Part shown: positions 4,938 to 43,430 of the stretch, piece after piece
How positions within the stretch are numbered: position 1 is the stretch's first letter
Layout: each line of letters opens with the position of its first letter
Origin: Deltaproteobacteria bacterium
GTDB taxonomy: Bacteria; Desulfobacterota; Syntrophia; Syntrophales; JAFGHS01
Assembly (NCBI GenBank): GCA_016928025.1
Contig: JAFGLN010000063.1
Coordinates: 716-64,715, forward strand
DNA: 64,000 bases
Reading direction: 5' to 3'
Notes under the pieces: generated by a model
What the model was told of the DNA's origin: nothing
The model's database searches: none
The model's input: the letters and a program-made list of their open reading frames with translations, nothing else
Position numbers and translations under genes: made by a program

Positions 4938-5390
4938 ATGGAAAATAACGGCAGTGCAAGCGTTCAAATCAGAGTTCCGTTTTATGACGTGGATCTGCTG
5001 CAGATCGTCTGGCACGGTAACTATTTGAAGTATTTCGATCTGGCCCGTCAGGCTTTGTTCATGAAGTACGGTTTAGATGTTCTCTATCGGCAGGATAAAC
5101 AATATGTCTTTCCGGTCGTCCGAACCAGTGTTAAATACCTTTATCCCCTTAAATTTAATGACGAATTTACTTGTACGGCCAGAATCAAAACGGCGAAAGT
5201 GAAGCTCGTCATCGATTTTGAAATCAGACTGTTGGATGACGGCCGATTATGTGCAACCGGACGGTGCGAACACGCTGCCGTCAGAATGCCGGAGATGGAA
5301 ATGGAATTCCGCATACCGGAAGAGGTGGAATCGGCACTTTATTCCGTTAAAGAAGCGGATAATGAAGAAATCGAAGCTGAGGGTAGCTAA
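4938..5390 (+). CDS. 4HBT/YbgC-type acyl-CoA/acyl-ACP thioesterase (hotdog fold)
   Basis: 150 aa. N-terminal VPFYDVDLLQIVWHGNYLKYFDLAR is typical of the 4HBT thioesterase family. Confidence 0.8.
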   Translation: MENNGSASVQIRVPFYDVDLLQIVWHGNYLKYFDLARQALFMKYGLDVLYRQDKQYVFPVVRTSVKYLYPLKFNDEFTCTARIKTAKVKLVIDFEIRLLDDGRLCATGRCEHAAVRMPEMEMEFRIPEEVESALYSVKEADNEEIEAEGS

Positions 5391-5417
5391 TAGATCAAGG
5401 TAACGGGATCGTTGTTT

Positions 5418-6659
5418 ATGGCAGACAAGCTGCGGGTTGTTGTAACGGGAATGGGTATGAGAACACCCATCGGCAATACGTTGAAGGATGTGGCCGAAGC
5501 GCTGAAGGCGGGTAAGAGCGGCATCCCGTATATGCCGGATTGGGAACAGATCGATCGCATGCGCACCAAAGTTGCCGGCGTCTGCGACATTGCCGGCGAA
5601 GAAGCGTCCATTTCCAGAACCTTTCGACGAAGTATGGGGCGTGTGGCAACGTTGGCGACTCTGGCGGCAATAGATGCGGTTGATGATTCGGGCATCAATA
5701 AAGGTGAGATTGCCTCTCCCGCCTGTGGTGTTTCCTTCGGCTCGACGGCGGGCAGCACCAGCGAACAGGTTGTTCAAATGGGTCGCATGATTCAGAATCA
5801 AAGCCTTGCCGGCCTTCCCTCCTCAGCCTATTTAAAGTGCATGAGCCACACCTGCGCCGGCAATCTGGCCACTCTTTTCCATTGCCGCGGCCCCTTTATC
5901 GCGTCCTGCGTGGCCTGCGCGTCCGGTTCTCAGGGAATCGGATTCGGCTATGAAGCCATTTCCCGCGGAAAAGCCCCGATCATGGTGACCGGCGGCGCGG
6001 AAGAAATGTATTTTATGCATGCCGCTATCTTCGACGTCCTCATGGCGACTTCCAGCACCTATAATGGCCGGCCCCATGAAACGCCCCGTCCTTTTGATGC
6101 CGCAAGGGATGGTCTGGTGGTGTCCGAAGGTGCCGGATGTCTGATGTTGGAGGAATATGAACATGCCCGCCACCGCGGCGCGAACATCTATGCCGAGATT
6201 CTGGGATACTGGACGAATTCGAGCGGCATGCATTTGACGGATTCCGATCCGCAAAGTATGGAGGAATGCATGCGGGCGGCCCTAAAAGATGCGGGCGTCA
6301 ACGCAGAAGATATCGAGCATGTGAGCGCCCACGCAACGGCCACCGACAGCGGAGATACGGCAGAAGCCATAGCAACCCACAGGGTTTTCGGGCCGAAGGT
6401 GCCGGTAACAGCTCTTAAAGGGAATACAGGCCACACTTTGGGAGCCAGCGGCGCCATCGAGGCCATTGCATCCATCCTTATGGGGCGGGAAGGTTTTATG
6501 TCCCACACCCTGAACCTTGCGGAGCCGGATCCGGAACTCCCTCCGCTCAACCATATCATGAAAGGACCGCTGGACAGGGGCTTTTCCCTTGGCGTGATAA
6601 ACAACTTTGCCTTCGGCGGGGTGAACACGTCTCTGGTGATCAGAAATTTCCTGCCATGA
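5418..6659 (+). CDS. beta-ketoacyl-ACP synthase (KAS I/II-type)
   Basis: Motifs VVVTGMGMRTPIG, active-site Cys in ACASGSQ, His in HATAT and GNTGHTLGASG, C-terminal NNFAFGGVNTSLV. ATG at 5418; the track ORF begins at a TTG at 5412. Confidence 0.9.
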   Translation: MADKLRVVVTGMGMRTPIGNTLKDVAEALKAGKSGIPYMPDWEQIDRMRTKVAGVCDIAGEEASISRTFRRSMGRVATLATLAAIDAVDDSGINKGEIASPACGVSFGSTAGSTSEQVVQMGRMIQNQSLAGLPSSAYLKCMSHTCAGNLATLFHCRGPFIASCVACASGSQGIGFGYEAISRGKAPIMVTGGAEEMYFMHAAIFDVLMATSSTYNGRPHETPRPFDAARDGLVVSEGAGCLMLEEYEHARHRGANIYAEILGYWTNSSGMHLTDSDPQSMEECMRAALKDAGVNAEDIEHVSAHATATDSGDTAEAIATHRVFGPKVPVTALKGNTGHTLGASGAIEAIASILMGREGFMSHTLNLAEPDPELPPLNHIMKGPLDRGFSLGVINNFAFGGVNTSLVIRNFLP

Positions 6660-6667
6660 TGAAATGA

Positions 6668-6698
6668 ATAAAAAAGGCAGGGCTTTCGACCCTGCCTT
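6668..6698 (-). terminator. rho-independent terminator of the PEP-CTERM gene
   Basis: The minus strand reads aaggcagggtcgaaagccctgcctttttt-att: a 9-bp stem followed by a T-run, 28 nt after the stop at 6726. Confidence 0.7.
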
Positions 6699-6725
6699 CA
6701 TCGTTGGCGCAATATCCGCCCGGGT

Positions 6726-7418
6726 TTACTTCTGAAGCCTTCTTCTCATGCCCGACAAACCTGCTAAACCGAAACCAAGGAGCAGCAGGATGCCGGGTTC
6801 GGGAACATGATAACGGACGAGGTAATTCTGGAACTTCTCTGTAATTACGGTTTCACCTGCCTCAACGGTCGGACTGACGGCGAGAGCCCACTCCGTGCAG
6901 CTGTAATTAGAGAGGTCAGACGGCATTGCGGCCAGGATAGAAGAAGCTTGGGTTGTATAGGCGCTGGTTTTAAAATTACCCGAACTTAAGTTAATACTGC
7001 TATCGAAAATAACCTCCCAAACGGCGATTTGCGCGGCAGCCTTCATGGTTTCTTCGGAAAGGGTTCCTTCATAATTTGTATAGTAATACTGGGCAATCCA
7101 CGCCGCGGCGAGAAATTTATCAACATCAAGACCAAAATTCGAAAGCCCCGAGTCAATGGTCAGCAGCGTATATCGGCTTGTCGCTGTCGTACCGTCTGCG
7201 TTTTCAACACAAAAAGCTTCATCAACGGGCCCGCCGTCCAACGATACATCATAATCCAGATAAACATTAATGGTACCGGTGGGACTGGGAAAAGTCATGA
7301 CCCCTGTTGGAGACGAATAGGACATAGTGAGGTCAACATCCCCGATAATATCGGCCGTTGCCAACAACGGGCAAGCAATCCACAGAACCGTCACTAAAAG
7401 GGCAATATATTTTTTCAT
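6726..7418 (-). CDS. PEP-CTERM sorting-domain protein
   Basis: 230 aa. Signal peptide MKKYIALLVTVLWIACPLLATA. C-terminus VPEPGILLLLGFGLAGLSGMRRRLQK gives the PEP motif, a TM helix and a basic tail. Confidence 0.9.
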   Translation of the reverse strand: MKKYIALLVTVLWIACPLLATADIIGDVDLTMSYSSPTGVMTFPSPTGTINVYLDYDVSLDGGPVDEAFCVENADGTTATSRYTLLTIDSGLSNFGLDVDKFLAAAWIAQYYYTNYEGTLSEETMKAAAQIAVWEVIFDSSINLSSGNFKTSAYTTQASSILAAMPSDLSNYSCTEWALAVSPTVEAGETVITEKFQNYLVRYHVPEPGILLLLGFGLAGLSGMRRRLQK

Positions 7419-7460
7419 TGTTCGATCTCCTGAAATTAATTTTATGTCTTATACTAGGCT

Positions 7461-7478
7461 TTGCAAATAATGTGCTAA
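7461..7478 (-). promoter_or_regulatory. sigma-54 (-24/-12)-like element
   Basis: The minus strand reads TTAGCAC-ATTAT-TTGCAA, against the consensus TGGCAC-N5-TTGCW. The -12 element is perfect; the -24 GG is AG. It lies about 45 nt upstream of the ATG at 7418. Confidence 0.35.
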
Positions 7479-7584
7479 CCGCCGGGATTATGTTAAACAA
7501 TTTATAACACGCAGATTACATTAGTAATTATGGTATGTAAGAAAACGTTTGGCCTTCGTGAGTCGAAGGATTGATTAATAAATT

Positions 7585-7601
7585 TGTAAAACATCCCGAC
7601 A
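7585..7601 (-). promoter_or_regulatory. TGT-N11-ACA box (copy 7)
   Basis: The minus strand reads TGTCGGGATGTTTTACA, about 110 nt upstream of the -24-like element. Confidence 0.5.
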
Positions 7602-7675
7602 ATGTATAGATAAAACAGGGGGCGGTAAATCATTATTCTATAGATATTACAATGACTTGAATATTCATTAACTAT

Positions 7676-7692
7676 TGTAAAACATCCCGACA
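7676..7692 (-). promoter_or_regulatory. TGT-N11-ACA box (copy 8)
   Basis: The minus strand reads TGTCGGGATGTTTTACA, identical to copy 7 and 91 nt further upstream. Confidence 0.5.
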
Positions 7693-7834
7693 GCCTTTTG
7701 TCATTTCGTCTTTTAGGATGTGATTTTCCCGCTGCTGGCTGCAACTTGTCATTCCGGTGATATATGGAATCAAGGCATTGGCCGGGCGAAAGCCGGAAAA
7801 CAAGGTTTATCGATTGATGCCGGATCAGAGCCGT

Positions 7835-8584
7835 TCACTTCATTCCGGTTGCTCTGAAGCGTTTGGATGTGAAAAGTCTCAGGACTAAAAGTCGGCTAAA
7901 GGTAAGGGTATTTCGCCAGAAGTCCATGACCGGCCGGAAATGGGACACACGATGGCCGATGAAGCGATATTGGGTCGATACTTCCGCTTCTCTGACGGGG
8001 ATTCCAGTCCAGGCGGCCAGGACCAGTATCTCTACTTCAAATTGAAATCGCTTGCCGCGCGCATTCATCATCAAGGCCTCCGGCAGGGGATAGAGCCGGA
8101 AGCCGCTTTGTGTGTCTGAAAGCTTCAAGCCGCTGCAGGTCCAGACCCAGAAATTGGAAAACCGACGGCCCCAACGGCTGGTCCATGGCGCGCCCTTTTG
8201 CAGCATATGGGTGCGTTTACCTATGACAATTGATCTTTCGCAATCCTTTACGGCCTTTAGAAGATTCAGGGCATCAGCAGGATCGTGCTGGCCGTCGGCA
8301 TCGAGGGTAATCGCCCAGTCGGCGACCAGGGAGGCCGCCGCGAATCCGGTCATGAGGGCCCGGCCCTTTCCCTGATTTGAGGGATGTCGTATGTTATTTA
8401 CACCGTTTAATTGATCCAAAATTTTTGCTGTATTATCCGTTGACCCGTCGTCGATGACATAGACAGGGCGCTGAAAGGCATGTAACTTTTCTATAATGGC
8501 GCCGATTGAGCCAGCATGATTATAAACGGGAATAATAAAAACGGTGCGAGATAAAATAGCATCGCTTGAGGATGTCAAAGGCAT
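7835..8584 (-). CDS. family 2 glycosyltransferase
   Basis: 249 aa. IIPVYNHAGSIG...VYVIDDGSTDNT and DADGQHD motifs. Its start shares 1 nt with the stop of the upstream gene (TAATG). Confidence 0.85.
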   Translation of the reverse strand: MPLTSSSDAILSRTVFIIPVYNHAGSIGAIIEKLHAFQRPVYVIDDGSTDNTAKILDQLNGVNNIRHPSNQGKGRALMTGFAAASLVADWAITLDADGQHDPADALNLLKAVKDCERSIVIGKRTHMLQKGAPWTSRWGRRFSNFWVWTCSGLKLSDTQSGFRLYPLPEALMMNARGKRFQFEVEILVLAAWTGIPVREAEVSTQYRFIGHRVSHFRPVMDFWRNTLTFSRLLVLRLFTSKRFRATGMK

Positions 8585-9183
8585 TACCTCCCATAAGCCA
8601 TTTCCGATTCGGCTTTGAAGAAAGCATGCTTGAATTCATGATCGGTCAGGATTGCCTCGACCAATTTATTGGTCATATCATAGGCGCGCATTTCCATATT
8701 TGCGGGTGTCTGTTCTCCCGGAGCTAATGGTTCGGAGGTTATGGTGTATATTTTAACAAAAAAAGGATTTCCATATTTCTGCAGATTCACCTGACCCACA
8801 AATTGTTCATCCGTGAATGATTTCATCGTCATCCACATCCCCGGCGCATGGGGGTCTGGTCTGTCCACTTTGGATACCTCCATGCCCAGGTTCACCATGG
8901 CGTTTCGAAAAGCGTACCAGAAATAATTGTTAATCAGTGAATCACCGCCATACGTGAATTTTTTATCCCGGCTGTAGTAATACCAGACGCTGGTGTTTTG
9001 GGCCTGGTTATCGAAATTCATGAGATAGATTTTTTTACCGTGATAGTCGCTTAAATCTCCCGTCAAATGGGGGGAATATTTCATGAGTTCGATTTTGGTG
9101 CCATAAACACCACAAGCAAGGATTGTAATGAAGATGGATAATAAAAAAATCATAAGAAAAGCATAACGTCTAAAATATGACAT
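8584..9183 (-). CDS. lipoprotein, unknown function
   Basis: ATG at 9183 preceded by aaaaggaggc. MSYFRRYAFLMIFLLSIFITILACG looks like a lipobox. Translationally coupled to the GT2 gene. Confidence 0.65.
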   Translation of the reverse strand: MSYFRRYAFLMIFLLSIFITILACGVYGTKIELMKYSPHLTGDLSDYHGKKIYLMNFDNQAQNTSVWYYYSRDKKFTYGGDSLINNYFWYAFRNAMVNLGMEVSKVDRPDPHAPGMWMTMKSFTDEQFVGQVNLQKYGNPFFVKIYTITSEPLAPGEQTPANMEMRAYDMTNKLVEAILTDHEFKHAFFKAESEMAYGR

Positions 9184-9391
9184 AAGATCCGCCTCCTTTT
9201 CAAATGGAATACCAACAACCATGAATATACGAATATCTATAGCAATATTGAAGCTATATGTTGTATCATGCTGAAAAGTCAACAGCTATTTTCTCTTTGC
9301 GAGGATGTGCCCGTGGATGATATAAAGTTACGATTGAAATATACGCGATATTCTATCTTAAAATCGATAAATTAAGGAGAAAGAAGCCCCG

Positions 9392-10570
9392 TTGAGTCGT
9401 TTTTATTGGACATCGATTATCTTTCTTTTCCTGGCAGGAATCAGCTTTATCTTTTTCTCATCTCCCCAGCAGGAACTTATCCTCCTTTTGTTGCTCGTTA
9501 TTTATCTGGCATTATTCAGTATGGGTGTCGCGGTTCTGCGCCTGAAATTTTTCTGCAGGGCCGTCTGCCGGGGTAAAACCGGGATAAATAAAATATTCCT
9601 GACGTTTGACGACGGCCCTGACCTTCAGGTGACACCGGTCGTGCTTTCTGTCCTTGAATCATACCATATAAAGGCCGCTTTTTTTTGTATCGGCGAAAAA
9701 GTGGCGCAATATCCGCAGATGGCCCGGCGCATTGTTGATGAAGGCCATACCATTGCCAACCACAGCATGCATCATTTTTGGTGGACAAATTTCTTGACAT
9801 TTAAGGGTCTGAATCGGGAAATGGCGGAAACCCAGGCCGTCATCAAGAGCATCACCGGGGAAACCCCCGCTTTTTTCAGGCCTCCCGCCGGTTTGACCAA
9901 TCCCCACATCGAAAAGGCCCTGCGTAAAAATGACTTGACATGCATCGGCTGGGATGTGCGGCCTTTCGATACAAAGAGACCGAAAGACAGAGTTGTCAAT
10001 ACCATTGCGCGCAAAGCCAGAGAGGGATCCATCGTTTTGATGCATGATACCGGAAGAACGCCTCAGGATATGGAGGCTCTTGTTCGGGATGTCATTGCCG
10101 CCCTGCAAAGCAAAGGCTTTTCTTTTTCTACCCTGAACGATCTTGTGGGGCTTGAACCATACCAGAGAAATGATGCCGTGGAAAAAGAGAGCCTTTCGAC
10201 AGGAATTATTGCGCGGATAACCCTGTGGCTGGCACAAGCGTCGTTCATCAGAAAGGCCCTTGCCGATGATATCTCACCGGCTGATATCAAGCAGCGGCCG
10301 TCAACCCGGTTTTTTGTAGGGTTGTCCCTTGTGGCCTTCAGTTACATTATCGGCTGGCCGGCCGTGGCTTTTTTTGCTTTTCTGGGTGTTTATCTTGATG
10401 TAAAAGAAATCGTTCTTCTGGGGCCGGCCAGTTATCTTTTTTCTTATCTCGTCTTTATTGCGGGTGCGGCTCTGGCGGGGGTTGACGGCATCAAATACGG
10501 ACGTCTGTTTTATCGCTGGACGATGCATCAATTCGCCTTGAGGATAGCGGCCCGGATAAAAAATAGGTAG
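9392..10570 (+). CDS. polysaccharide deacetylase (NodB/CE4 domain) with N- and C-terminal membrane segments
   Basis: 392 aa. FLTFDDGPD and HTIANHSMHH are CE4 motifs. The C-terminal ~100 aa are hydrophobic (FFVGLSLVAFSYIIGWPAVAFFAFLGVYL...). TTG start with an aaggag RBS. Confidence 0.8.
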   Translation: MSRFYWTSIIFLFLAGISFIFFSSPQQELILLLLLVIYLALFSMGVAVLRLKFFCRAVCRGKTGINKIFLTFDDGPDLQVTPVVLSVLESYHIKAAFFCIGEKVAQYPQMARRIVDEGHTIANHSMHHFWWTNFLTFKGLNREMAETQAVIKSITGETPAFFRPPAGLTNPHIEKALRKNDLTCIGWDVRPFDTKRPKDRVVNTIARKAREGSIVLMHDTGRTPQDMEALVRDVIAALQSKGFSFSTLNDLVGLEPYQRNDAVEKESLSTGIIARITLWLAQASFIRKALADDISPADIKQRPSTRFFVGLSLVAFSYIIGWPAVAFFAFLGVYLDVKEIVLLGPASYLFSYLVFIAGAALAGVDGIKYGRLFYRWTMHQFALRIAARIKNR

Positions 10571-10577
10571 AAGGAGC

Positions 10578-10598
10578 AAGGTTCAAGGAACAAGGTGA
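10578..10598. repeat. AAGGTTC-type heptamer-like short repeat
   Basis: aaggttc aaggaac aaggtga, directly after the stop at 10570. Confidence 0.4.
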
Positions 10599-10627
10599 AA
10601 GAAATGAGGTTCGGATAGGAGCTTGTA

Positions 10628-11239
10628 TTGATAGCGGAAAAAGTTAAAATCCTTCTTTGGCTTATACCGTTTGCCTATCTGGCCGGTTCTGCGAATTTTT
10701 CCATTTTACTTTTTAAGTGTATGGGCAAGGCTGACCCGCGGAGCCGTTTCAGCGGAAATCCGGGGACGGCAAATGTGGTCAGGCAATCCGGTTATATGTG
10801 GGGCTCCTTTATCCTGATTCTGGATATCGGGCGGGCGGCCTTAATCGTGCTTCTGGCGGATGAACTTCTCAAGGACGCTTTTAGTCTCTGGGTCGGATTT
10901 GCCCTGTTGGTCGGAAACCGTTATCCCGTGTTTCACGGTTTTAAGGGGGGCAAAGGTGTGGCGACCTACCTGGGAATCACGGCGGTTATGGCGCCGTTCT
11001 TTGCCGCCGCCTCCTGTCTGACCTGGGTGCTGGTTTACGCTGTCGTACGGATAACATTCATCGGGTCGTTTTTTATGGTCGCCGTCATGGGGTTTGGAAT
11101 GATGCGGTATTTTCATTGGAATGCCGTTGCCGTGACCGGCTCCCTCCTGAGTCTTGCCTTGATTTTTCATGCCCATCGCTCAAATATCGCAAATTATCAG
11201 GCTATTCGGGAAAAAGATCCTCATGCCGGCAAGGCTTGA
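10628..11239 (+). CDS. plsY: glycerol-3-phosphate acyltransferase PlsY
   Basis: 203 aa polytopic protein. SGNPGTANVVRQSG and HGFKGGKGVATYLG are PlsY signature motifs. TTG start with an aggag RBS. Confidence 0.85.
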   Translation: MIAEKVKILLWLIPFAYLAGSANFSILLFKCMGKADPRSRFSGNPGTANVVRQSGYMWGSFILILDIGRAALIVLLADELLKDAFSLWVGFALLVGNRYPVFHGFKGGKGVATYLGITAVMAPFFAAASCLTWVLVYAVVRITFIGSFFMVAVMGFGMMRYFHWNAVAVTGSLLSLALIFHAHRSNIANYQAIREKDPHAGKA

Positions 11240-11321
11240 CAAAAAAGAATTTACCGTGTTAGATCAAACTCCTTTTTCATTATTAATCTGAAAGATGTGA
11301 GGTTTAGAGGAGGGGAACATA

Positions 11322-11585
11322 TTGTCTGTTGATACAAACGACGAAGAAATTCTGCAAGCCATCATCCAATACCTGGTTGAGGATTTCGAAATTCCGGAGG
11401 AAAAAATACACCTGGATGCCAATCTATTCACTGATCTGGAATTAGACAGTGTTGACGCTTTGGACTGGTTTGCCACCATGGAGACGGAAATTAATTTATC
11501 CATCGTGGAAAAGGATCTTAAAAAAATCCGTACAGTACGTGATGTGGTCGCCTATGTTAAAAAAAACAGATCAGCCGATTCATGA
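11322..11585 (+). CDS. acyl carrier protein
   Basis: 87 aa. DLELDSVDALD carries the phosphopantetheine-attachment Ser. TTG start after agaggagggg. Confidence 0.85.
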   Translation: MSVDTNDEEILQAIIQYLVEDFEIPEEKIHLDANLFTDLELDSVDALDWFATMETEINLSIVEKDLKKIRTVRDVVAYVKKNRSADS

Positions 11586-11955
11586 GGTCATTTCGCGAAC
11601 CCATTTGCCCCTGTTTGACCTGCAAGAAACCGACGGACAGATTAAGGCTAAAGCCCGATTCTCCGCCGATGCCATTTGGTTCCAAGGCCACTTTCCCTCG
11701 ATCCGTATTCTGCCCTGTGTGGCGGTAACGGCTCTGGCTGTGGAACCGCTGTTAAGGAATTCCCTCGCTAAAGGGCGTCCTCTGAAAATAAAGGGTTTTT
11801 CCCGGGTGCGAATCAAAATACTGACGTTCCCCGATGAACCGCTGGATATCGCTATTGAAAACATGCCGCCCGACAGAGAGGCGGAACTGGCTTTTGAGGT
11901 CTCCTGCCGGGGAGCGAAAGTCTGCCAGGGGAAAGCGCTGGTGGCGGAGCAATGA
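11554..11955 (+). CDS. hotdog-fold (3R)-hydroxyacyl-ACP dehydratase-like protein
   Basis: An ATG at 11554 within ORF 11449..11955 overlaps the ACP stop. The FQGHFP motif is typical of FabA/FabZ-like dehydratases. Confidence 0.7.
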   Translation: MLKKTDQPIHEVISRTHLPLFDLQETDGQIKAKARFSADAIWFQGHFPSIRILPCVAVTALAVEPLLRNSLAKGRPLKIKGFSRVRIKILTFPDEPLDIAIENMPPDREAELAFEVSCRGAKVCQGKALVAEQ

Positions 11956-12236
11956 ATGAAGCGGATAAGGATCTTAACATGAGAGAACTTTTGGATGAAT
12001 TGAAAAAAAAGCTGGTAACGGAACTCGAATTGACGGATATTCGGCCTGAGGATATTAAAGACGACGAAGAATTTTTCGCTAACGGATTGGGGATGGCCTC
12101 CATCGATTTGCTTTTTTTCATCGCCGTTCTGGACAATGATTACGGGGTTTTAATAGACAACAAAGAGCTGGGTGAAAAAGTGTTCGTCAATTTAACCACG
12201 CTGGCCGAATATATTACGAAAAACCGCAAGAGGTGA
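11952..12236 (+). CDS. acyl carrier protein (second copy)
   Basis: 94 aa. GLGMASIDLLFFIAVLDNDYG is an ACP-like helix II with Ser. ATGA overlap with the upstream gene. Confidence 0.75.
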   Translation: MNEADKDLNMRELLDELKKKLVTELELTDIRPEDIKDDEEFFANGLGMASIDLLFFIAVLDNDYGVLIDNKELGEKVFVNLTTLAEYITKNRKR

Positions 12237-12237
12237 T

Positions 12238-13863
12238 ATGACTGAAAAGCCCTGGCTGAAAAGCTATGAACCTCGCATCTCTCCCCAGCTTGACTATCCG
12301 CCCCTTACGATCCCCCGGTTTCTTTTCGAGACGGCCGAAAAGCATCCCGAATATATTGCGACCACATTCAACGAGACGGACATCACTTATGGGGAGCTCA
12401 ATGCCAAAGTCAACGGCATGGCCCATGCGCTCCGGTCACTCGGCGTGAAAAAAGGAGATCATTGCGCCCTGTTCCTGCCGAACACGCCCACCTATGCCAT
12501 CGCCTACTATGCCATCCTCAAGATCGGCGCCGTCGTCGTGAATATCAATGTCGGCATTCAAGGCGAAGAACTCGCCGATTCACTGAACATGTCCCGGGCC
12601 CGGGTTATCATCTCTCTGGATGTATTTATTCAAAACATATACCGGGTTCTTAAAAATACCGCCGTGGAAATCGTCATCCTCCATTCCGTTTTTGGTTTGG
12701 AGCAGAAGATGAAATATGACGGGGTACCGCGTCCCCTGATCTTCAACGATCTGGTGGCGGCCCATCCGGAGCATGAACCGGACTGGGCCTGCCTGCCCGA
12801 GGATTTGGCCGTCCTCCAGTTCACCGGCGGCACGACGGGCCGGCCCAAAGCGGCCATGTTGGCCCATCAAAGCGTCGTGGCGAATATTATGCAGACCGTC
12901 GAATGGGTCAATGCCGAAGAAGCCGGTAATGACGCTGTCTTGTGCATCATTCCCTTTTTCCACGTTTTCGGCATGAACGCCTGCCTGAATCTGGCCGTGC
13001 GTAAAGGGTACCGCATGATCCTGGTGCCGCGCTTCGACTGGCTTGATCTGATCCCGCTGATGTCCATGATTGAAAAATACCGGCCCATATCCCTGCCGGC
13101 GGTGCCGGGTCTTTGGACGGCGCTGCTCGTATCTTCCCGAACAACGAAGGAACTGCTTGCGTCCCTTCAGGTCCCGGTCAGCGGCGGAGCGCCCTTGCCC
13201 GGAAAAGTCCAAGATCAGTATGAAGCCCTGACAGGACGGAAAATCTACGTGGCCTATGGTCTTTCCGAAGCATCTTCCGCCGCCCTGTTCGCTCCCTACC
13301 CGAAAGGCGCACCCCCGGGGAGCATCGGCCTGCCGCTGTCCGACACGGATGCCCGTATTGTTGATATCGAGACGGGAACAAAAGCATTGCCGCCCGGTGA
13401 AGTCGGAGAGCTAACCGTCCGGGGGCCGCAGATGATGCTGGGCTATTACGAAAATGAGGCGCTGACGGCGAAGGTGTTGCGCGATGGTTGGCTGTACACC
13501 GGCGATCTGGCCTACATGGATGAAAGCGGTTTCTTCTATCTGGTGGACAGAAAGGATGATCTCATCATTACCAGCGGATTTAACGTTTATCCCAGTGGCG
13601 TGGAAGATGTCCTGTTGGCACATCCGGCCGTTAAAGAGACGGCGGTGGTCGGTGTGCCGGACCGCACCCGGGGACAGGCGGTAACGGCTTATGTCGTCCT
13701 GAAAGAAAACCGGCAGGCCGACCGGGATGTTATCCTGGCCTTTTGCCGGGAGCGTCTGTCCGATTTCAAGGTTCCCCGAGCGATCCATTTTGTTGAGCGA
13801 ATCCCGCGCAATCCCATCGGGAAGCCGTTAAAAGCGTCTTTGAAACCGGGGAGGGAAGGGTAG
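12238..13863 (+). CDS. AMP-dependent synthetase/ligase (acyl/aryl adenylating enzyme)
   Basis: 541 aa. FTGGTTGRPKAAML (A3), YGLSEA (A5), TGDLAYMDESGFFYLVDRKDD (A8), and PRNPIGKP at the C-terminus. Confidence 0.9.
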   Translation: MTEKPWLKSYEPRISPQLDYPPLTIPRFLFETAEKHPEYIATTFNETDITYGELNAKVNGMAHALRSLGVKKGDHCALFLPNTPTYAIAYYAILKIGAVVVNINVGIQGEELADSLNMSRARVIISLDVFIQNIYRVLKNTAVEIVILHSVFGLEQKMKYDGVPRPLIFNDLVAAHPEHEPDWACLPEDLAVLQFTGGTTGRPKAAMLAHQSVVANIMQTVEWVNAEEAGNDAVLCIIPFFHVFGMNACLNLAVRKGYRMILVPRFDWLDLIPLMSMIEKYRPISLPAVPGLWTALLVSSRTTKELLASLQVPVSGGAPLPGKVQDQYEALTGRKIYVAYGLSEASSAALFAPYPKGAPPGSIGLPLSDTDARIVDIETGTKALPPGEVGELTVRGPQMMLGYYENEALTAKVLRDGWLYTGDLAYMDESGFFYLVDRKDDLIITSGFNVYPSGVEDVLLAHPAVKETAVVGVPDRTRGQAVTAYVVLKENRQADRDVILAFCRERLSDFKVPRAIHFVERIPRNPIGKPLKASLKPGREG

Positions 13864-13869
13864 GACAAA

Positions 13870-14349
13870 ATGACCTCGAAAAACCTGCCGGCGATTGAGT
13901 CTCTGATCCCGCATCGGGCGGCTATGATGCTCATCGATCGTGTGACCGACATCGAGGATGATCGTATTGTGACCATAGCCGTTGTTAAAGAGAACTGGCC
14001 GCTTTGTGACCGCGCCGGCGCGGATGTGATTCTGACCGTGGAGATCATTGCCCAGTCCGTGGCGGCCCTGTACCACCGAAGAAAAAAACGGCCGGGAACA
14101 CCGCAAATCGATTTTCTCGTCGGCATTAAAGAGGCACGGTTTGAGACGCAGAAGCTGCCGCTTCACGCCGAGCTCACAGCAAGGGTTCAAATGGTTTCCT
14201 TCATCGGCAATTACGGGATTTTTAAAGGTGAAGTTCTGATGGTCGATGAGATCCTTTGTGAGACCACCGTCCAGGTGCTGGAACCCGATGAAGAATTGTG
14301 GGAGGCTATCCTCAGCGGGCATACGAGGGAGGTGTCGGATGATGAGTGA
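13870..14349 (+). CDS. hotdog-fold dehydratase (FabZ/ApeP-like)
   Basis: 159 aa. LIPHRAAMMLIDRV is typical of FabZ-like/APE-cluster dehydratases. Confidence 0.7.
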   Translation: MTSKNLPAIESLIPHRAAMMLIDRVTDIEDDRIVTIAVVKENWPLCDRAGADVILTVEIIAQSVAALYHRRKKRPGTPQIDFLVGIKEARFETQKLPLHAELTARVQMVSFIGNYGIFKGEVLMVDEILCETTVQVLEPDEELWEAILSGHTREVSDDE

Positions 14350-15070
14350 ACAAAAGACGGCGCTGGTGACGGGCGGCAGTCGGGGTATCGGGCGGGCCGT
14401 TTGTCTGGAATTGGCCGGAGCGGGTTATTACGTCCTGGTCAATTACCGAACCCAAGAAGCGGCGGCAAAAGAAACTCTGATCATGATTATGGATGCCGGG
14501 GGTGGAGGCGAATTGTGTCCCTTTGATGTGACGGACCAGCCAACCGTTGCCGCTTGTCTGAAAGACCTGACCGGACGCCTGGGCTTTATCGAGGTACTGG
14601 TCAATAATGCCGGTGTGGCGGCGGACGGTCTTTTTGGCCTGATGCCGCCTGAGGACTGGCACCGGGTCGTGGACACGACCCTGTCGGGCTTTTATAACGT
14701 GACGAAGCCGTTGCTGAAGCCCATGCTGGCGAAAAAACGCGGATCCATCATATCGATTTCCTCCGTCTCCGCCCTGGTGGGCAACCGGGGGCAAACGAAC
14801 TATGCCGCGGCAAAGGCCGGCCTGATCGGCGCGAGCCGGGCTTTGGCCGGCGAAACGGCCCGCGCCGGCGTGCGCGTGAATGTCGTAGCACCGGGCCTCA
14901 TCGAGACGGAAATGACCGCTGATATGCCGCGGGACCGCATCAAACAGCTCATTCCCATGGCCAGACTGGGCAGACCGGAAGAGATCGCCCGGGTGGTGGC
15001 GTTTTTATGTTCCGATGCCGCGTCTTACATTACCGGCCAGGTCCTCTCCGTGAATGGCGGCATGCTGTGA
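14339..15070 (+). CDS. 3-oxoacyl-ACP reductase (SDR, FabG-like)
   Basis: ATG at 14339 inside ORF 14246..15070. Motifs ALVTGGSRGIGRA, NNAG, S...YAAAKAG, and C-terminal ITGQVLSVNGGM. Confidence 0.9.
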   Translation: MMSEQKTALVTGGSRGIGRAVCLELAGAGYYVLVNYRTQEAAAKETLIMIMDAGGGGELCPFDVTDQPTVAACLKDLTGRLGFIEVLVNNAGVAADGLFGLMPPEDWHRVVDTTLSGFYNVTKPLLKPMLAKKRGSIISISSVSALVGNRGQTNYAAAKAGLIGASRALAGETARAGVRVNVVAPGLIETEMTADMPRDRIKQLIPMARLGRPEEIARVVAFLCSDAASYITGQVLSVNGGML

Positions 15071-15211
15071 TTGACCTCATGGTAAAAAACCTTAAGTCGT
15101 GAATGATAAATCGTAAATAGTGACGAATAAAGAGGTTCTAAATTGAAAAAAGTTATTTTCCCGTCACTTGTGAGAGATTATTTTCTTCCCTCATGGCGTT
15201 TCCGCGGCAAC

Positions 15212-15823
15212 ATGGGGATTATCAAGACCATGACCTTGTTCATTTGTTTCTGGGTTTTATTCTCCGTCGGCGTTTCAGTAGCAGACGATTTTGAGACACT
15301 ACGCCAGTCGGCGCAAAATATCAAAAGTTTAAGTGCGGATTTTGTTCAGGAAAAACACCTGAAGATCCTGGCAAACCCCATCACCTCCAAGGGCAGGCTA
15401 TATTTTAAGGCCCCCCGGTCGATCCGCTGGGAGTACCTGACGCCGATCAAAAGCCTCACTCTGATGAATGATAACGGCGTAGCGGTCTATAGCTGGTTGG
15501 AGGACAAATGGGTCCTCGATCGGGCCCAAAGCGATGCCCGTGGCATCGTCATGGACGAAATCAACAACTGGTTTTCCGGGCGCTTCGATGAAAATCCCGC
15601 TTTTTCGCATACCGTCAAGCCGGGGCCGAAGCCTTTGGTCATCCTGACGCCCAAAGAGGGCGTAAAGAACTTCATTTCCCTTATCGTTCTGACCCTTTCC
15701 GATGCCAATGGTTTGGTTACGGGGGTCGAAATCTTTGAAAGCGGCGATAACAGGACTACAATTGACTTTATCAATGAAAAGCTAAACACGGATTTTCCGG
15801 AAAGCCTCTTTGAGGAACCATGA
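15212..15823 (+). CDS. LolA-like outer-membrane lipoprotein carrier family protein
   Basis: Signal-peptide-like MTLFICFWVLFSVGVSVA. The block SLSADFVQEKHLKIL...GRLYFKAPRSIRWEY matches the LolA-fold family. The start is uncertain (TTG 15143, ATG 15212 or ATG 15230). Confidence 0.7.
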   Translation: MGIIKTMTLFICFWVLFSVGVSVADDFETLRQSAQNIKSLSADFVQEKHLKILANPITSKGRLYFKAPRSIRWEYLTPIKSLTLMNDNGVAVYSWLEDKWVLDRAQSDARGIVMDEINNWFSGRFDENPAFSHTVKPGPKPLVILTPKEGVKNFISLIVLTLSDANGLVTGVEIFESGDNRTTIDFINEKLNTDFPESLFEEP

Positions 15824-16479
15824 AAAAAACACCTCACCTGCTTTGGGGGATCGCTTTTCTCGTCTCGATCCTGACGTCTTGTGCCGCTGTTGTTACGTAT
15901 GAACCTTTAAAGCCGCCAAGCCCTGGAGCGGTTTGTCCAACAATATTTCCTGAGACGGATTTCCGCGCGGTCCATCGGATTGAAATATCGAGCGCCCGGA
16001 GCGGCAAAAGCGCTTTCATTGGTGCGGTGAAATGTGAGCCGGATAAAAGCACCCTACATGCCGTCCTCATGAGTGCAGAGGGGATGGTTATATTCGAGGC
16101 GGCGGTAAAAAAAGGCGCTTTCCGGATTATCAGTGCCTTTCCGCCTCTGGACGATTCGGTTTTTGCCCGGGGGCTTATGGCCGATGTTTCATTTCTCCTA
16201 TTGAAACCTGCCGGTATGCCGATGGAAACGGGTCTGGATCGGCAGGGTTTGATGACCTGCCGCTGGTCGGCAGCAGCCGGAGGCGTCATAGAACAGTCGA
16301 TGATGCGGGCTGGTGCCGTCCGCATCAGACGTTACAACCAAGCCGGACGGATCACCAAAGAAGCTTTGGCCCTCCCGCCTTTCGACCGGGGCTTGCCGGT
16401 GGCAATGCATCTTAAAGTATCGGGTCCGGTCAAATATTTCATTGATCTTAAGCTGCTGGAGGTGAAATGGGTTAATTAA
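15820..16479 (+). CDS. lipoprotein, LolB/DUF3261-like
   Basis: 219 aa. Lipobox in MKKTPHLLWGIAFLVSILTSCA. ATGA overlap with the LolA-like gene. The position matches the DUF3261 member of APE-type clusters; this is positional inference. Confidence 0.6.
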   Translation: MKKTPHLLWGIAFLVSILTSCAAVVTYEPLKPPSPGAVCPTIFPETDFRAVHRIEISSARSGKSAFIGAVKCEPDKSTLHAVLMSAEGMVIFEAAVKKGAFRIISAFPPLDDSVFARGLMADVSFLLLKPAGMPMETGLDRQGLMTCRWSAAAGGVIEQSMMRAGAVRIRRYNQAGRITKEALALPPFDRGLPVAMHLKVSGPVKYFIDLKLLEVKWVN

Positions 16480-17185
16480 GAAGACCTTTAACCACACTCA
16501 CCACCCGGTCCCATTCAAAAACATGGTTTGCTCTCAGTTCGCTGCTGCCGCAGGCGAAAATACTTTCTCTTTTGCCTAATTTAATAAGACGAACCGCCCG
16601 CCAGGTCTCGATGAGATGAAGGTTGAGCGCTTTGGAAGCAGCCTCTTTGGCTGTCCAGACCATTGTCGCTGCCACCGTCAAATCCAGCCCTGATCCGTCG
16701 GCGACGGCCGTTTCCTCAGGATTCATAAAGATGTGTCGCCCTTTGATCAAGCGGGGGGAGATGAGTTCGATATCCACACCGATGGGGCGTTTGTCGGCCA
16801 CAGTCATACTGAAACGTTTATCATGGGAGACGGAGGGATAAAAACGGCCTTCCGCACCGGGCAACAGAGGCCGCCCGTCTTTTGGGTCTATTGTCTCTAA
16901 TGTTCGCGCTTCACGCCGGCCGTCAATTAATCCTATCCGGTAAGACAGGAGTTTCAGAGATATTCGCGAGGCCATAAAACTGTATTTCCTGCGCTCCGGG
17001 AATCCCGCCGCGAGTGACTGTTCGAAAGGTGTAAGAGCCTCCCAGGCATGCGGTGCCGGATGATGGTATTCAAATACCATGAAGCCTGAAGACAATAGAT
17101 TAATAGTATTGGAAAACTCAGGGGAGGGAACGGCGATATGCCAGCCGTCCAAGGAAAGGCCTCGTTCAAGGGAAAGTATATCCAT
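16472..17185 (-). CDS. 4'-phosphopantetheinyl transferase (Sfp-type)
   Basis: 237 aa. PIGVDIELI and WTAKEAASKAL are PPTase signature motifs. Confidence 0.85.
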   Translation of the reverse strand: MDILSLERGLSLDGWHIAVPSPEFSNTINLLSSGFMVFEYHHPAPHAWEALTPFEQSLAAGFPERRKYSFMASRISLKLLSYRIGLIDGRREARTLETIDPKDGRPLLPGAEGRFYPSVSHDKRFSMTVADKRPIGVDIELISPRLIKGRHIFMNPEETAVADGSGLDLTVAATMVWTAKEAASKALNLHLIETWRAVRLIKLGKRESIFACGSSELRANHVFEWDRVVSVVKGLLN

Positions 17186-17199: not shown

Positions 17200-19269
17200 C
17201 TATCTTTCGATGCGGACATTTTGAAAAGCGAAATTAAATTCCTCCCATGACCAGCTGAATACTTTTCGGAAATAGACAAAGGGGTGGAGCGTGAATTTAT
17301 TGATCTCTCGCATATTGGCCGGGACATTTTTAAAGACAAACTGGGCCGTCTGGGTTGATCGTCCTTCCAGAGAAGCCCCGCGGTAACCCGCTTCATACAT
17401 GGTCTGTTTCTGTTTTCCCTTCCAAAACACGACCTGAGAGACCTGATACTCCCTTCCGGAGGCGTCCGTCATTTTAGATTTTGTCCACCGGTAGTTCTCG
17501 TCGTAAAGGGCGATTTCCCGATATTCGTCCTGAGTCAAATTGGTAAGGTCGACAAATACGGACAGTTCCTTGCCGGAATATCCGGCTTTGATCAGTTCGA
17601 ACAGGACTTCTTTCCCTTCAGCGGATGCCAGGGCATTGGGATTTCGCTTTACTGCCGGGGCGGAAGGCTCATCCGCGGGCTTATCGTCTTTTTTATCGGC
17701 CTTGAAGAGGTCGGGAATATAGCTGATCAGCGGTTTTCTGTCCTTCGGTGTCTCGGAGGCCGGTTCCGCCGCCTCTGTCGGTGGCGGCTCCTGCACGGTT
17801 TTTTCATCTTCCTCTTTGAGAACGGTCCGGATACGGAAAGCCATTTTTACGCGAACGCTGTCCCCTTCATTGATAAAAGAGATCAACCGGGCCGCCGTAA
17901 TACGGGCTTCTGTAACGGCCTGCAGGGAAGATTCCGCCGTGACCTGAAAATTAGTTACTTCCGTGGTGGATGTGGAATGCTGCATTTTGGCATCATTTCT
18001 CACCTCTTCCAGTTTGTCGATAATGGCCTCCGCGGAGGCGTCGGCAGGCGTCTGAGAACCCCGCGCCGCGGCCAGGGCGGTTTTTATAATGATGGTCTCC
18101 CGGATGCGCCGGATATCATGGAGCGATTTTTGGCTTTCCTGGAAAAGACGCTCTGCTTCTTCTTTTTGTTTAAGTAAATGATCCCTGTCCTGTGACGCTT
18201 TCTTAAACGGTTCATCCTTCCTTTTTAAGAGCGCCAACTGCATCTGCTTTTCCGACTGCGCGTCGCCGATTCTATCCTGTAAAGAATTAATCCTGTCCTG
18301 AAAAGATTTTACCTGCTCCTGCAGGCTTGCTTCGGCCTGGACGTTCGCTTGTTGTGTTTCCCGTATTTTGTTTTCGATTCGTTCCAAATCATATTGGGCC
18401 GCGGAATAGCCGTTGGCCGCAAGAAAATTGCCGAGGTCCTTCGGTGACGTTATGACGGCAGCTTTTATATTTTCAGAACCGCTGTCGGCAGCCACCCGTC
18501 CTGTCCGGGGTGCCTGAAAGGGAAATAACTCATAACGTTTCACGCGCAGATAGGTTGTGCCTTTGTTTCCTTTTGCCAATTCGATGCGCAGAGGTTCTTC
18601 ATTATTCCATTTGGCGGTTCCTTCTTCAACGGCGCGGATGAAATCGCTGGATAGGACGGAATCAATGACTTTGGAATGGGACTGGATATAGGTTCCCATA
18701 TATTGGGCGATCAGCGGCCCTGACTTCTTGTCCGCCTCGCTTTCCAAAGCGTGGGCGCTGTCTCTGAAACCTCTGGTGAAGATGACGGCCACAATAGCTT
18801 CTCCCTGTTTCTCCGTCTGCAGCCATTTTTTGAGGGACGCCTGCTGGGTCTTAATATCCTGGCTGTATCGCTCGATCTGATTGTCCAGATTACCGATGCC
18901 TTCTTTGATGGTATTGATATTTTTAAGTTGGTCCTCATACTCGATGGAGGCCGCCTGAAATTGAGACGTCAAATCGTCACGCCGCCTCTTCGCCTGTTTG
19001 AATTCCCTATTCGCTTCGGCGATGGCTTTCTTGTAAGCACTGTCCTGACGGTCCTTTTCTTCTTCCACGGCCGTGAGATTTGCCCTTTCTTCCTGGTAGG
19101 TGGAGAAGCCTTCCCGTTTATTGACTTCGGAACGGATCAGTTCCTTGACGGAATGCGTGGCGTCGGACCGCAAGGATATCCAGCTGCTTAACGGTGTTTG
19201 AGCGGAACAGACGGGGCAGCTTAAAAAGAAAACGATAAAAATCAGAAGTGGAAGTCTGAGTTTTTCCAT
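17200..19269 (-). CDS. secreted coiled-coil protein, unknown function
   Basis: ATG at 19269 after an aggtgg RBS. Signal peptide MEKLRLPLLIFIVFFLSCPVCSA. About 450 aa are rich in E/K/Q heptad-like sequence, followed by a Pro/Glu linker and a ~150-aa globular C-terminal domain. Confidence 0.7.
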   Translation of the reverse strand: MEKLRLPLLIFIVFFLSCPVCSAQTPLSSWISLRSDATHSVKELIRSEVNKREGFSTYQEERANLTAVEEEKDRQDSAYKKAIAEANREFKQAKRRRDDLTSQFQAASIEYEDQLKNINTIKEGIGNLDNQIERYSQDIKTQQASLKKWLQTEKQGEAIVAVIFTRGFRDSAHALESEADKKSGPLIAQYMGTYIQSHSKVIDSVLSSDFIRAVEEGTAKWNNEEPLRIELAKGNKGTTYLRVKRYELFPFQAPRTGRVAADSGSENIKAAVITSPKDLGNFLAANGYSAAQYDLERIENKIRETQQANVQAEASLQEQVKSFQDRINSLQDRIGDAQSEKQMQLALLKRKDEPFKKASQDRDHLLKQKEEAERLFQESQKSLHDIRRIRETIIIKTALAAARGSQTPADASAEAIIDKLEEVRNDAKMQHSTSTTEVTNFQVTAESSLQAVTEARITAARLISFINEGDSVRVKMAFRIRTVLKEEDEKTVQEPPPTEAAEPASETPKDRKPLISYIPDLFKADKKDDKPADEPSAPAVKRNPNALASAEGKEVLFELIKAGYSGKELSVFVDLTNLTQDEYREIALYDENYRWTKSKMTDASGREYQVSQVVFWKGKQKQTMYEAGYRGASLEGRSTQTAQFVFKNVPANMREINKFTLHPFVYFRKVFSWSWEEFNFAFQNVRIER

Positions 19270-19477
19270 AATGCCACCTATAAAAGAAATATTTTCCCGG
19301 CAAAAAAGCGTAATAAAATGTTCCATGGTTGTCAAATCATAATTTTCGAATAAATAAGGGCAAATTTTCTTGACACGAAAAATGCCCCTCCCTATACTTC
19401 GTTGAAAGTTGCCGTCTGTTCGGCAGACGTTAATGGTGACCGGAAAAGGTCATGAGCAGAAAAAGGAGGAAGATGCT

Positions 19478-42354: not shown

Positions 42355-42664
42355 TTTTTCCCTCCTCTTAAACTATGAAATTTATGATTTCGTTAAAAAA
42401 CAGCATGTATGGAGGGAGACTATTAAAAGCTCCCTTTACATGTCAATAAAAAAACTTGCCATAAAATATGAAATCTAATCGCGCGTCATACCTGTGATTA
42501 TGCGATAGATCATTGATAGGCTGCGGTTTATGCCATACATTAATCGAAATACTCGGGGGGTATGTCCGACAACACAATTTTTTACTACACAGATTAAGCT
42601 TTCCCAGTTGAATGCCATATTTTCTACTGACTATCTGTTGAAAATAAAAAATATACTTTTTGTC

Positions 42665-42681
42665 CGTCGGAATGTTTTACA
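42665..42681 (+). promoter_or_regulatory. TGT-N11-ACA-type box (copy 1, degenerate first base)
   Basis: CGTCGGAATGTTTTACA. Confidence 0.4.
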
Positions 42682-42775
42682 GTTCAATGAGGAGCCGCAT
42701 TTTCTGATAACCATTAGATTTTATTAAACAATATAGAATAAGCCATTTCCCGGACTAATGAGATGCCGGTCTTTT

Positions 42776-42792
42776 TGTCGAAATGCTTTACA
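42776..42792 (+). promoter_or_regulatory. TGT-N11-ACA box (copy 2)
   Basis: TGTCGAAATGCTTTACA, followed by AATCC as in copy 5. Confidence 0.5.
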
Positions 42793-43369: not shown

Positions 43370-43430
43370 GAAAAATAGTCAAAGGAAAAGTTTTTATTTT
43401 TATAAATTAAGTTATTAGGGAGGTAAAAAA

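Follow-up and report, generated by a model that had tools for sequence, protein, structure and literature searches.

The subject of this report is a gene cluster at positions 4938-17185 of a stretch of DNA of 64,000 nucleotides (hereafter the window; contig JAFGLN010000063.1 of the assembly GCA_016928025.1), which was found to encode an accessory type-II fatty acid synthase/polyketide synthase (FAS/PKS) system of the aryl-polyene (Ape) type for a lipid. Few biosynthetic gene clusters (BGCs) of bacteria are as widespread as those for aryl polyenes. The source genome (G000) is a metagenome-assembled genome (MAG) of Syntrophales from a sediment metagenome, and comprises 3.68 Mb in 126 contigs with a completeness of 89%. 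Genes in the window were examined with a listing of open reading frames (ORFs) and with Pfam/NCBIfam scans, and copies in the rest of the genome were searched by tblastn of the cluster proteins. As the reference, we used the proteins of the ape cluster in Escherichia coli CFT073, which were compared by blastp following the published gene table (PMC8253772). An earlier annotation of this DNA (hereafter the original prediction) had listed the genes of the cluster, all of which were present at their coordinates.

Genes of the cluster

The first two genes are on the plus strand: namely, a 4HBT-fold thioesterase (4938-5390; PF13279/PF03061) similar to ApeK (35%, E 5e-24) and a beta-ketoacyl-acyl carrier protein synthase (KS; 5412-6659; PF00109/PF02801) of the initiating, ApeR type, which scored 447.7 bits against NF006587 with a cutoff of 470. 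This KS was 43% identical to ApeR over 407 aa (E 1e-110) but only 29% to ApeO, and its catalytic Cys-His-His triad is intact in the alignment. A GT2 glycosyltransferase on the minus strand (7835-8584; PF00535) is the equivalent of the first half of ApeJ, at its N-terminus (34% identity with residues 10-231, E 1e-31), and its best NCBIfam matches were of the PpgS, AglJ, and ArnC types, i.e., lipid-phosphate sugar transferases. The start of the GT2 gene overlaps the stop of a lipoprotein gene (8584-~9183, minus strand) by TAATG.

On the plus strand, furthermore, a membrane-embedded CE4 (NodB-type) deacetylase (9392-10570; PF01522, E 6.5e-32) possesses the motifs TFDDGPD and HSMHH, with its catalytic core flanked by the transmembrane segments 3-55 and 307-367. 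It is followed after 57 nt by a gene for a cluster-associated subfamily of the PlsY-family glycerol-3-phosphate (G3P) acyltransferase (10628-11239; PF02660; TIGR00023 98.9 against a cutoff of 137), and a gap of 82 nt separates PlsY from the first acyl carrier protein (ACP1). The 57-nt spacer (10571-10627) consists of successive AAGG-type units (AAGGAGCAAGGTTCAAGGAACAAGGTGAAAG).

The region from ACP1 onward had been described as a tightly packed operon at 11322-16479 with ATGA- and TGATATG-type overlaps, and our reading base by base confirmed this description. ACP1 (11322-11585; PF00550) is ApeF-like (NF003757 69.9 against a cutoff of 65; 38% to ApeF, E 7e-14) and is followed by DH1, an ApeI-like hotdog dehydratase with a GHFP motif (11554-11955, with the start at 11542 or 11554). 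The matches of DH1 itself to FabA/ApeI were weak (E 0.0085 and 0.034), and its orthologues carry the ApeI-like PF22818. ACP2 (11952-12236) is ApeE-like (NF006617 55 bits; 33% to ApeE, E 7e-13), the adenylate-forming ligase (12238-13863; PF00501, PF13193) is of the FadD/4-coumarate-CoA ligase (4CL) type but not an ApeH orthologue, and DH2 (13870-14349; PF07977) is an ApeP-like hotdog dehydratase (24% to ApeP, E 1e-7; 6QSR_B, an ApeP chain, E 7.8e-5) with orthologues carrying the ApeP-like PF22817. The ketoreductase (KR; 14339-15070) belongs to the SDR families and is 45% identical to ApeQ (E 4e-70), with 305 bits against FlxB_rubin_SDR and 302 bits against the FabG model NF004200 (cutoff 273). 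A LolA-like periplasmic carrier (15143-15823), which had also been predicted, was supported by matches to PF03548 (E 4.8e-16) and LolA2_flexi (104.5 bits); it takes the position of ApeL, which it matches at E 1e-3. The last gene of the operon (15820-16479) encodes a lipoprotein of 219 aa. ATGA overlaps occur at 11952 and 15820, TGATATG at the junction between ACP2 and the ligase (12234-12240), and DH2 and KR also overlap. The start of KR is most likely 14339, behind GGAGG, rather than 14246, and that of the LolA-like protein is probably 15212.

Convergent with this operon is an Sfp-type phosphopantetheinyl transferase (PPTase; 16472-17185, minus strand; PF01648), which takes the same convergent position in the related loci L006, L007, and L028. 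The gene immediately 5' of the PPTase, also on the minus strand (17200-19335), encodes a 711-aa secreted coiled-coil protein but is not at that position in relatives, where a sigma-54 activator (L006) or the LpxL-Fak operon described below (L053) follows the PPTase.

In total, nine proteins of the window map to Ape proteins. The core set of a canonical ape BGC has been defined as apeO/R, apeE/F, apeC, apeI/P, apeQ, and apeM (Grammbitter et al. 2020), and an ApeR-type initiating KS, both ACPs, the ApeI/ApeP pair, and ApeQ were found in the window. No enoyl reductase was present in the chain-building module of the window, and blastp gave no window counterpart of ApeG, ApeA, stand-alone ApeB or, except by fold, ApeN.

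The two lipoproteins

The 219-aa lipoprotein had been predicted to be LolB/DUF3261-like. Its LolB-like character was borne out by the predicted fold, but the assignment to DUF3261 was not, since no Pfam family matched the protein at E<=1. DUF3261 (PF11659) was weakly matched by 9 of the 28 family members (best E 4e-4), two of which gave scores of ~19 bits against the cutoff of 22.3, while ApeN as a control scored 132 bits. A link to ApeN at the level of the amino acid sequence was also sought and discarded; blastp returned nothing, and hhalign gave a probability of 18%. In the AlphaFold model (predicted local distance difference test, pLDDT, 90; predicted template modelling score, pTM, 0.81), the best Foldseek matches were the LolB structures 8CM1, 1IWM, and 9TPM (E 4e-6 to 6e-5, TM scores 0.43-0.54) of V. 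cholerae, E. coli, and P. gingivalis, and LolA-superfamily proteins matched as well. We therefore regard the protein as a putative, divergent counterpart of ApeN/DUF3261 on the basis of the modelled fold and the gene position only. A lipobox is present in all aligned members with its cysteine (C21) invariant. A search of 5.8 billion proteins gave 19 close relatives, and both of those with a named source were from Syntrophales MAGs. More distant members of the family, with 25-32% identity, were found in 79 of the 201 genomes that were sampled in the order.

As for the lipoprotein next to GT2, both its coupling to GT2 (by the TAATG overlap) and its lipoprotein nature (a lipobox ILAC after Met34) were confirmed, and its predicted fold turned out to be LptE-like instead of LolA-like. 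A LolA identity had been considered from a weak NCBIfam match of the 232-aa ORF (E 0.0055) and was abandoned, because the AlphaFold model (pLDDT 80) was matched best by LptE (E 2e-4) and DUF330 (TM score 0.50) in Foldseek. The protein has no Pfam match and occurs in only some relatives.

A second locus on contig C70

The original prediction had noted that the cluster lacks an MMPL exporter, a methyltransferase, and a lysophospholipid acyltransferase (LPLAT). This holds for the window but not for the genome: a four-gene operon encoding all of these, which was first noticed through a match to DegV, is located on another contig (C70:167-6827). We had also taken MMPL to be missing from the genome, as a PF03176 scan hit only weak AcrB-like proteins; this was overturned by hmmscan of the C70 ORFs. 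The reported absences therefore describe the window, not the organism.

The operon on C70 encodes an acyltransferase of the LpxL/PatA family, which is closest to the phosphatidylinositol mannoside acyltransferase PatA and matches the C-terminal half of ApeJ (residues 362-545 of 558; 26%, E 2e-9), and a 571-aa fused fatty-acid kinase (Fak) composed of Dak2 (FakA-N), FakA-M, and DegV, of which DegV scored above the cutoff; Fak has no Ape counterpart. The other two products are a PlsC-type LPLAT of the acylglycerol-phosphate acyltransferase type, which is ApeD-like (E 5e-14), and a 1,041-aa fusion of MMPL with a C-terminal methyltransferase (C70:3702-6827; PF03176, E 4.7e-6) of the MMPL/HAE3 RND (resistance-nodulation-division) type. 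The fusion protein was 22% identical to ApeM over 580 aa (E 2e-8); ApeM of the core set is thus represented on C70, not in the window.

In relatives, the genes of the two loci are found together. A single contig of the relative G082, the genome of which is 100% complete, holds the PPTase, the ten-gene operon, GT2, KS and the thioesterase, and, after a spacer of 2 kb, LpxL-Fak-LPLAT-MMPL-methyltransferase. The genes for LpxL-Fak-LPLAT are inserted between the ligase and DH2 of a window-type operon in L062-L064, and adjoin the PPTase in L053. The order of CE4, PlsY, ACP and onward is kept in L004, L006, L028, and L062-L064, with protein identities of 55-80% to L004, L006, and L028, in all three of which CE4 stays 5' of PlsY. 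Both plsY and the CE4 gene, which had been reported as embedded in the cluster, are thus conserved members of it.

The satellite operon of G022, a genome of the same genus, has no LPLAT, and its MMPL-methyltransferase and kinase genes are 30 nt apart (L052, C69:2595-8342). L053 (CAYRSQ010000009.1) is labelled "uncultured archaeon" and yet holds this bacterial cluster with a kinase 78% identical; the label is probably wrong.

Accessory status and missing aryl-specific genes

When the genome was searched with tblastn, a canonical yceD-(rpmF)-fabG-acpP-fabF locus was found on contig C86. Since a separate set of yceD-fabG-acpP-fabF exists there, the cluster in the window is accessory and not the housekeeping one, as had been predicted. 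Indeed, the KS of the cluster is only 33% identical to the FabF-like KS on C86. At the C86 locus, fabG-acpP-fabF directly follow yceD without plsX, fabH, and fabD between them. Besides this second set of fabF/fabG/acpP, a third and again accessory set is present on contig C21.

The prediction of one KS with no chain-length factor (CLF) also held genome-wide for the Ape-type genes. A tblastn search of the whole of G000 with ApeO hit only FabF and the ApeR-like KS, and that with ApeC hit nothing; ApeO and ApeC were likewise missing from the loci L053, L055, and L062-L064 of the same subtype. ApeH had no match in G000, and the similarity of the cluster ligase to ApeH was only at E 6e-4. An aromatic ammonia-lyase was present in 12 of the 16 genomes tested but in none of G000, G022, and G082. 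This lyase and a B12 radical-SAM gene sit within the sister clusters of other genera, and the latter had only weak matches in G000 (about 20-24% identity) on other contigs. In every example of the subtype that we saw, the genes of the aryl branch were missing together.

PlsY and the fused fatty-acid kinase

PlsY (PF02660) is a single copy in G000 and was found in 87 of the 201 genomes of the order, with 114 lacking it. PlsX (PF02504) was found in none of the 201 genomes, for which positive controls worked. A PlsB-like protein of ~880 aa, scoring below the TIGR03703 cutoff, was present in 28 of 31 relatives and also in G000 itself as a PlsB-like glycerol-3-phosphate acyltransferase (GPAT). With PlsX absent, the PlsB-like protein near-universal, and PlsY patchy, therefore, PlsY is not considered to be the bulk-lipid enzyme of the order.

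The distribution of PlsY follows that of the cluster lipoprotein instead: both, the lipoprotein only, PlsY only, and neither were found in 76, 3, 11, and 111 genomes, respectively (Fisher 4e-39), and the corresponding numbers for Fak were 77, 2, 5, and 117 (Fisher 1e-46). Within genera, moreover, presence and absence switch together (G014 versus G082, G017 versus G037), and in 22 genomes PlsY and the lipoprotein are on the same contig at a distance of 3.5-40 kb. We also scanned species-representative genomes with an alignment of the fused kinase and obtained at least 425 relatives, which include those in Syntrophales (Syntrophus, Smithella), Desulfobacterales, and Spirochaetota. Among these, 80 loci were returned for the count of neighbours, and Fak is flanked by the thioesterase in 66 of them, by GT2 in 51, by the LpxL-like protein in 50, by MMPL-methyltransferase in 35, and by the lyase in 32. 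The module of thioesterase, Fak, and GT2 is thus general to a large clade of Ape-like clusters.

Compared with Aquifex PlsY (5XJ5), the residues clamping G3P (Ser35, Arg45, Lys104, and Asn180) and also His177 are kept, in line with the roles described for the G3P site (PMC5700162). In the Aquifex enzyme, acyl-phosphate is bound by no side chains other than those of Thr41 and His92; His92 is conserved at 97.8% among 7,288 homologues, and the H92N mutant retains ~7% of the activity (PMC5700162). In the cluster-linked PlsY, however, His92 is replaced by Asn in eight out of eight sequences, and Thr41 is replaced by Ala in the subtype of the window; the window protein also has FSGN for GSGN.

With regard to the supplier of acyl-phosphate, no PlsX was found, and C70 encodes the fused FakA-N/DegV kinase. 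In view of the missing PlsX and the changes at His92 and Thr41, we had considered an obligatory non-canonical donor for PlsY, such as acyl-AMP from the adjacent ligase, and dropped this idea; because the fused kinase co-occurs, acyl-phosphate is the simpler donor. The path from Fak to PlsY is an established acyl-phosphate route.

A Dak2-type kinase, a DegV fatty-acid-binding module, and PlsY are likewise combined in the FakAB-PlsY system of Firmicutes, by which an exogenous free fatty acid is converted to acyl-phosphate and then to lysophosphatidic acid. In our case, in contrast, FakA-N/M and FakB are in one polypeptide, PlsX is absent order-wide, the genes belong to a secondary-lipid cluster beside a thioesterase, and the side chains of PlsY for acyl-phosphate are changed. 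No paper in the literature that we searched connects aryl polyenes with PlsY, DegV, or Fak.

Proposed system

Taken together, we consider it probable that the window cluster (4938-17185) and the C70 operon constitute one Ape-type outer-membrane lipid system split into two loci, which would operate as follows. A carboxylic-acid starter, fatty or aryl, would be activated by the ligase and extended by the ApeR-type KS, the KR, and the DH pair without enoyl reduction, and the product would be a 3-hydroxy or conjugated enoyl chain on ACP. The thioesterase would release the acid, the fused kinase would turn it into acyl-phosphate, and PlsY would load the acyl group onto G3P, after which LPLAT would fill the sn-2 position to give a phosphatidic-acid-like core. 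GT2 may then put N-acetylhexosamine (HexNAc) on the lipid phosphate, as in the glycerol-phosphate-N-acetylgalactosamine (GalNAc) core of the aryl polyene lipid (APEL); the sugar would be deacetylated by CE4 and acylated by the PatA/LpxL-type enzyme, and MMPL, the LolA-like protein, and the LolB-fold lipoprotein would take the lipid to the outer membrane.

To our knowledge, the acyl transfer from ACP to the membrane anchor in Ape systems and also the role of ApeK have only been postulated. The thioesterase, the fused kinase, and PlsY together suggest a concrete route for this transfer: namely, release of the acid, its phosphorylation, and transfer to glycerol phosphate. APEL has a glycerol-phosphate-GalNAc backbone with a conjugated C26:5 acyl chain, a saturated acyl chain, and a sugar-bound aryl polyene, for which ApeD was proposed as a glycerolipid (G3P-lipid) acyltransferase and ApeJ as a glycosyl- and acyltransferase (bioRxiv 10.1101/2020.12.19.423268).

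The ape systems of E. coli CFT073 and Xenorhabdus doucetiae are hence the closest for comparison, with counterparts of ApeD, E, F, I, J, K, L, M, N, P, Q, and R in our genome and the same class expected for the product, i.e., a glycerol-phosphate-aminosugar lipid that is transferred by export to the outer membrane. The system described here differs in having no ApeO/ApeC, ApeH, ApeG, ApeA, and stand-alone ApeB, in its FadD/4CL-like ligase, in the division of ApeJ into two genes, in the fusion of the methyltransferase to MMPL, in the distribution over two loci, and in the additional CE4, PlsY, fused fatty-acid kinase, LptE-like lipoprotein, and in-cluster PPTase.

Aryl-type clusters in other Syntrophales, Desulfobacterales, and Spirochaetota (e.g., L037, L044, L066, L070) have in common with the window the block of DH2, KR, LolA, and lipoprotein, the module of thioesterase, Fak, GT2, MMPL-methyltransferase, and LpxL, and also the link to PlsY. 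They carry an ammonia-lyase, a B12 radical-SAM protein, an ApeH-like ligase, and an ApeO-like KS, all of which the subtype of the window lacks; this subtype is characterised by an operon that begins with the CE4 and PlsY genes and by a different ligase. The system is one without aryl-specific genes, within a broader and apparently undescribed clade using the fatty-acid kinase and PlsY. Flexirubin (flx/dar) systems in Bacteroidota are also polyene-type type-II systems with Lol-like export; indeed, KR and the LolA-like protein best match FlxB_rubin_SDR and LolA2_flexi, respectively, both below the curated cutoffs. The DarA/DarB resorcinol genes and a tyrosine ammonia-lyase are, however, not present here.

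As had been suggested in the original prediction, the product is possibly a glycosylated or deacetylated envelope lipid instead of a classical pigment. An apeR mutant of E. coli is still pigmented and builds up late intermediates, which its authors read as impaired in their attachment to the lipid anchor (PMC8253772), and in the fuller clusters of Syntrophales, genes like ApeF, ApeR, and ApeD are adjacent. By analogy, this phenotype and the adjacency would fit with the idea that the subtype retains the anchor-lipid branch while the pigment branch is lost. More tentatively, we can envisage that a large undescribed clade in anaerobic Desulfobacterota and Spirochaetota has co-opted Fak-PlsY as a bridge from polyketide to glycerolipid, and that the subtype of the window makes an aryl-free, fatty-acid-primed conjugated acyl aminosugar-phosphoglycerolipid. 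If so, its product would be the APEL anchor lipid minus the pigment, with the donor pocket of PlsY remodelled. Such an aryl-free subtype would serve as a natural minimal version for studying the anchor-lipid branch, and the PlsY subfamily could show how a donor pocket is retuned, given that the G3P site is kept and both side chains for acyl-phosphate are changed. For genome mining, furthermore, splitting across loci alone can make a cluster look atypical, and absences need a genome-wide check.

Several points weigh against the proposed two-locus system. The window and C70 loci are on different contigs in G000, and the completeness of this genome (89%) puts some risk on the absence calls, which are nonetheless repeated in the complete G082. 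The co-occurrence statistics of PlsY and Fak ignore kinship. The only metatranscriptome of the source study contained no reads of the cluster and yielded one 32-nt foreign fragment. With Asn92 and Ala41, the donor of PlsY may differ from ordinary acyl-phosphate, and with the 4CL-like ligase and the O-methyltransferase-like domain fused to MMPL, the starter may be aromatic. We also know of no demonstration that a lone ApeR-type KS without CLF performs repeated elongation.

Alternative explanations

The first alternative is a functional aryl-polyene pigment cluster, in which the 4CL-like ligase would activate an aromatic acid (4-coumarate, benzoate, or a hydroxybenzoate, for example) supplied by the aromatic metabolism of the organism or by the environment, the ApeR-type KS would build the polyene alone or with the housekeeping FabF, and methylation of the ring would fall to the methyltransferase domain of the MMPL fusion. 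This idea draws on the ligase, of which the nearest structures in the PDB are 4-coumarate-CoA ligase (3A9U, E 3.5e-78) and then feruloyl-CoA synthetase. Family models disagree with the solved structures on the specificity, however; NCBIfam puts the ligase nearest to FadD-type long-chain fatty-acid ligases, with all matches below the cutoff. The methyltransferase domain is kept in G082 and G022 (66-68% identity), the sister clusters in the order clearly belong to the aryl type and carry the aromatic ammonia-lyase and the ApeH-like ligase, and the genome encodes about 30 paralogues of acyl/aryl-CoA ligase. As described above, nonetheless, the ammonia-lyase, ApeH, and ApeO/ApeC are missing from G000, G022, and G082, and the joint loss of all these genes in each example of the subtype makes an aryl pigment unlikely. 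The ~30 ligase paralogues in G000, with identities of 24-36% to the cluster ligase, are consistent with an organism that lives by the degradation of fatty or aromatic acids.

Even less probable is that unrelated operons are placed side by side, with GT2, CE4, the lipoprotein, and PlsY modifying another envelope lipid in an ArnC/ArnD- or FlmF2/NaxD-like manner and the operon from ACP to the LolB-fold lipoprotein making a separate acyl product. In ArnC/ArnD, FlmF2/NaxD, and LgmA/LgmC, GT2 loads a sugar on a lipid phosphate and CE4 then removes the N-acyl group. GT2 in the cluster is indeed nearest to polyprenyl-phosphate sugar synthases, CE4 resembles the NodB/PgdA deacetylases, and the two genes are divergently transcribed; general scans for transcription signals, moreover, were uninformative on this matter, as the site counts of promoters and terminators did not exceed those in shuffled sequence except for a hairpin at 6673-6699. 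Nevertheless, GT2 is a homologue of ApeJ and is beside the thioesterase, Fak, and MMPL in 51 of the 80 listed clusters, the order of CE4, PlsY, and ACP is conserved in the six loci named above with only short gaps between the genes (57 and 82 nt in the window), and we saw no GT-C (ArnT-type) transferase in the cluster. The acceptor of GT2 is likely to be the phosphate of a glycerolipid and not undecaprenyl phosphate.

Finally, the proposal that the cluster is nothing more than the housekeeping fab/pls set of the organism, for which it could be said that PlsY is the sole PF02660 match in the genome and that KR passes one FabG model, is already contradicted by the canonical locus on C86, by the PlsB-like GPAT, by the 114 of the 201 genomes without PlsY and all without PlsX, and by the KS being nearer to ApeR (43%) than to the FabF-like KS of its own genome (33%), and can practically be dismissed.

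Other features of the window and the genome

A gene for a PEP-CTERM protein (6726-7418, minus strand; PF07589) is located between the KS and GT2 genes, and the terminator and upstream boxes that had been assigned to it are real. The hairpin at 6673-6699, which has an 11-bp stem with six GC pairs and a T-run, forms a bidirectional terminator where the KS and PEP-CTERM genes converge, and two perfect 18-nt direct repeats (TTGTAAAACATCCCGACA) are present upstream of the gene at 7584 and 7675, i.e., 91 nt apart. In G082, KS directly abuts GT2 with no PEP-CTERM gene between them, and the KS orthologue is 82% identical. Judging from this comparison of gene order, the PEP-CTERM gene is a lineage-specific insertion outside the lipid system. 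The protein also matches the thioester domain TED (PF08341, E 2.5e-6), a family more familiar from the adhesins of Gram-positive bacteria.

The accessory set on contig C21 mentioned above is part of a FAS-like operon unrelated to that in the window (C21:7700-17300; L001:1727-11322). It encodes a family III CoA-transferase, an acyltransferase of the malonyl-CoA:ACP transacylase type, an acyl-CoA dehydrogenase, and beta-ketoacyl-ACP synthase III (KAS III), together with a FabA-like DH, KR, a FabZ-like DH, KS, ACP, LPLAT, and its own PPTase.

Elsewhere in the window, a stretch of ~4 kb (42000-46000) has a GC content of 40%, compared with ~52% around it, and contains short ORFs only; this DNA may be of foreign origin or non-coding. 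At 1037-2722 on the minus strand, a lone gene encodes a dynamin-family GTPase (561 aa; PF00350, E 4e-22).

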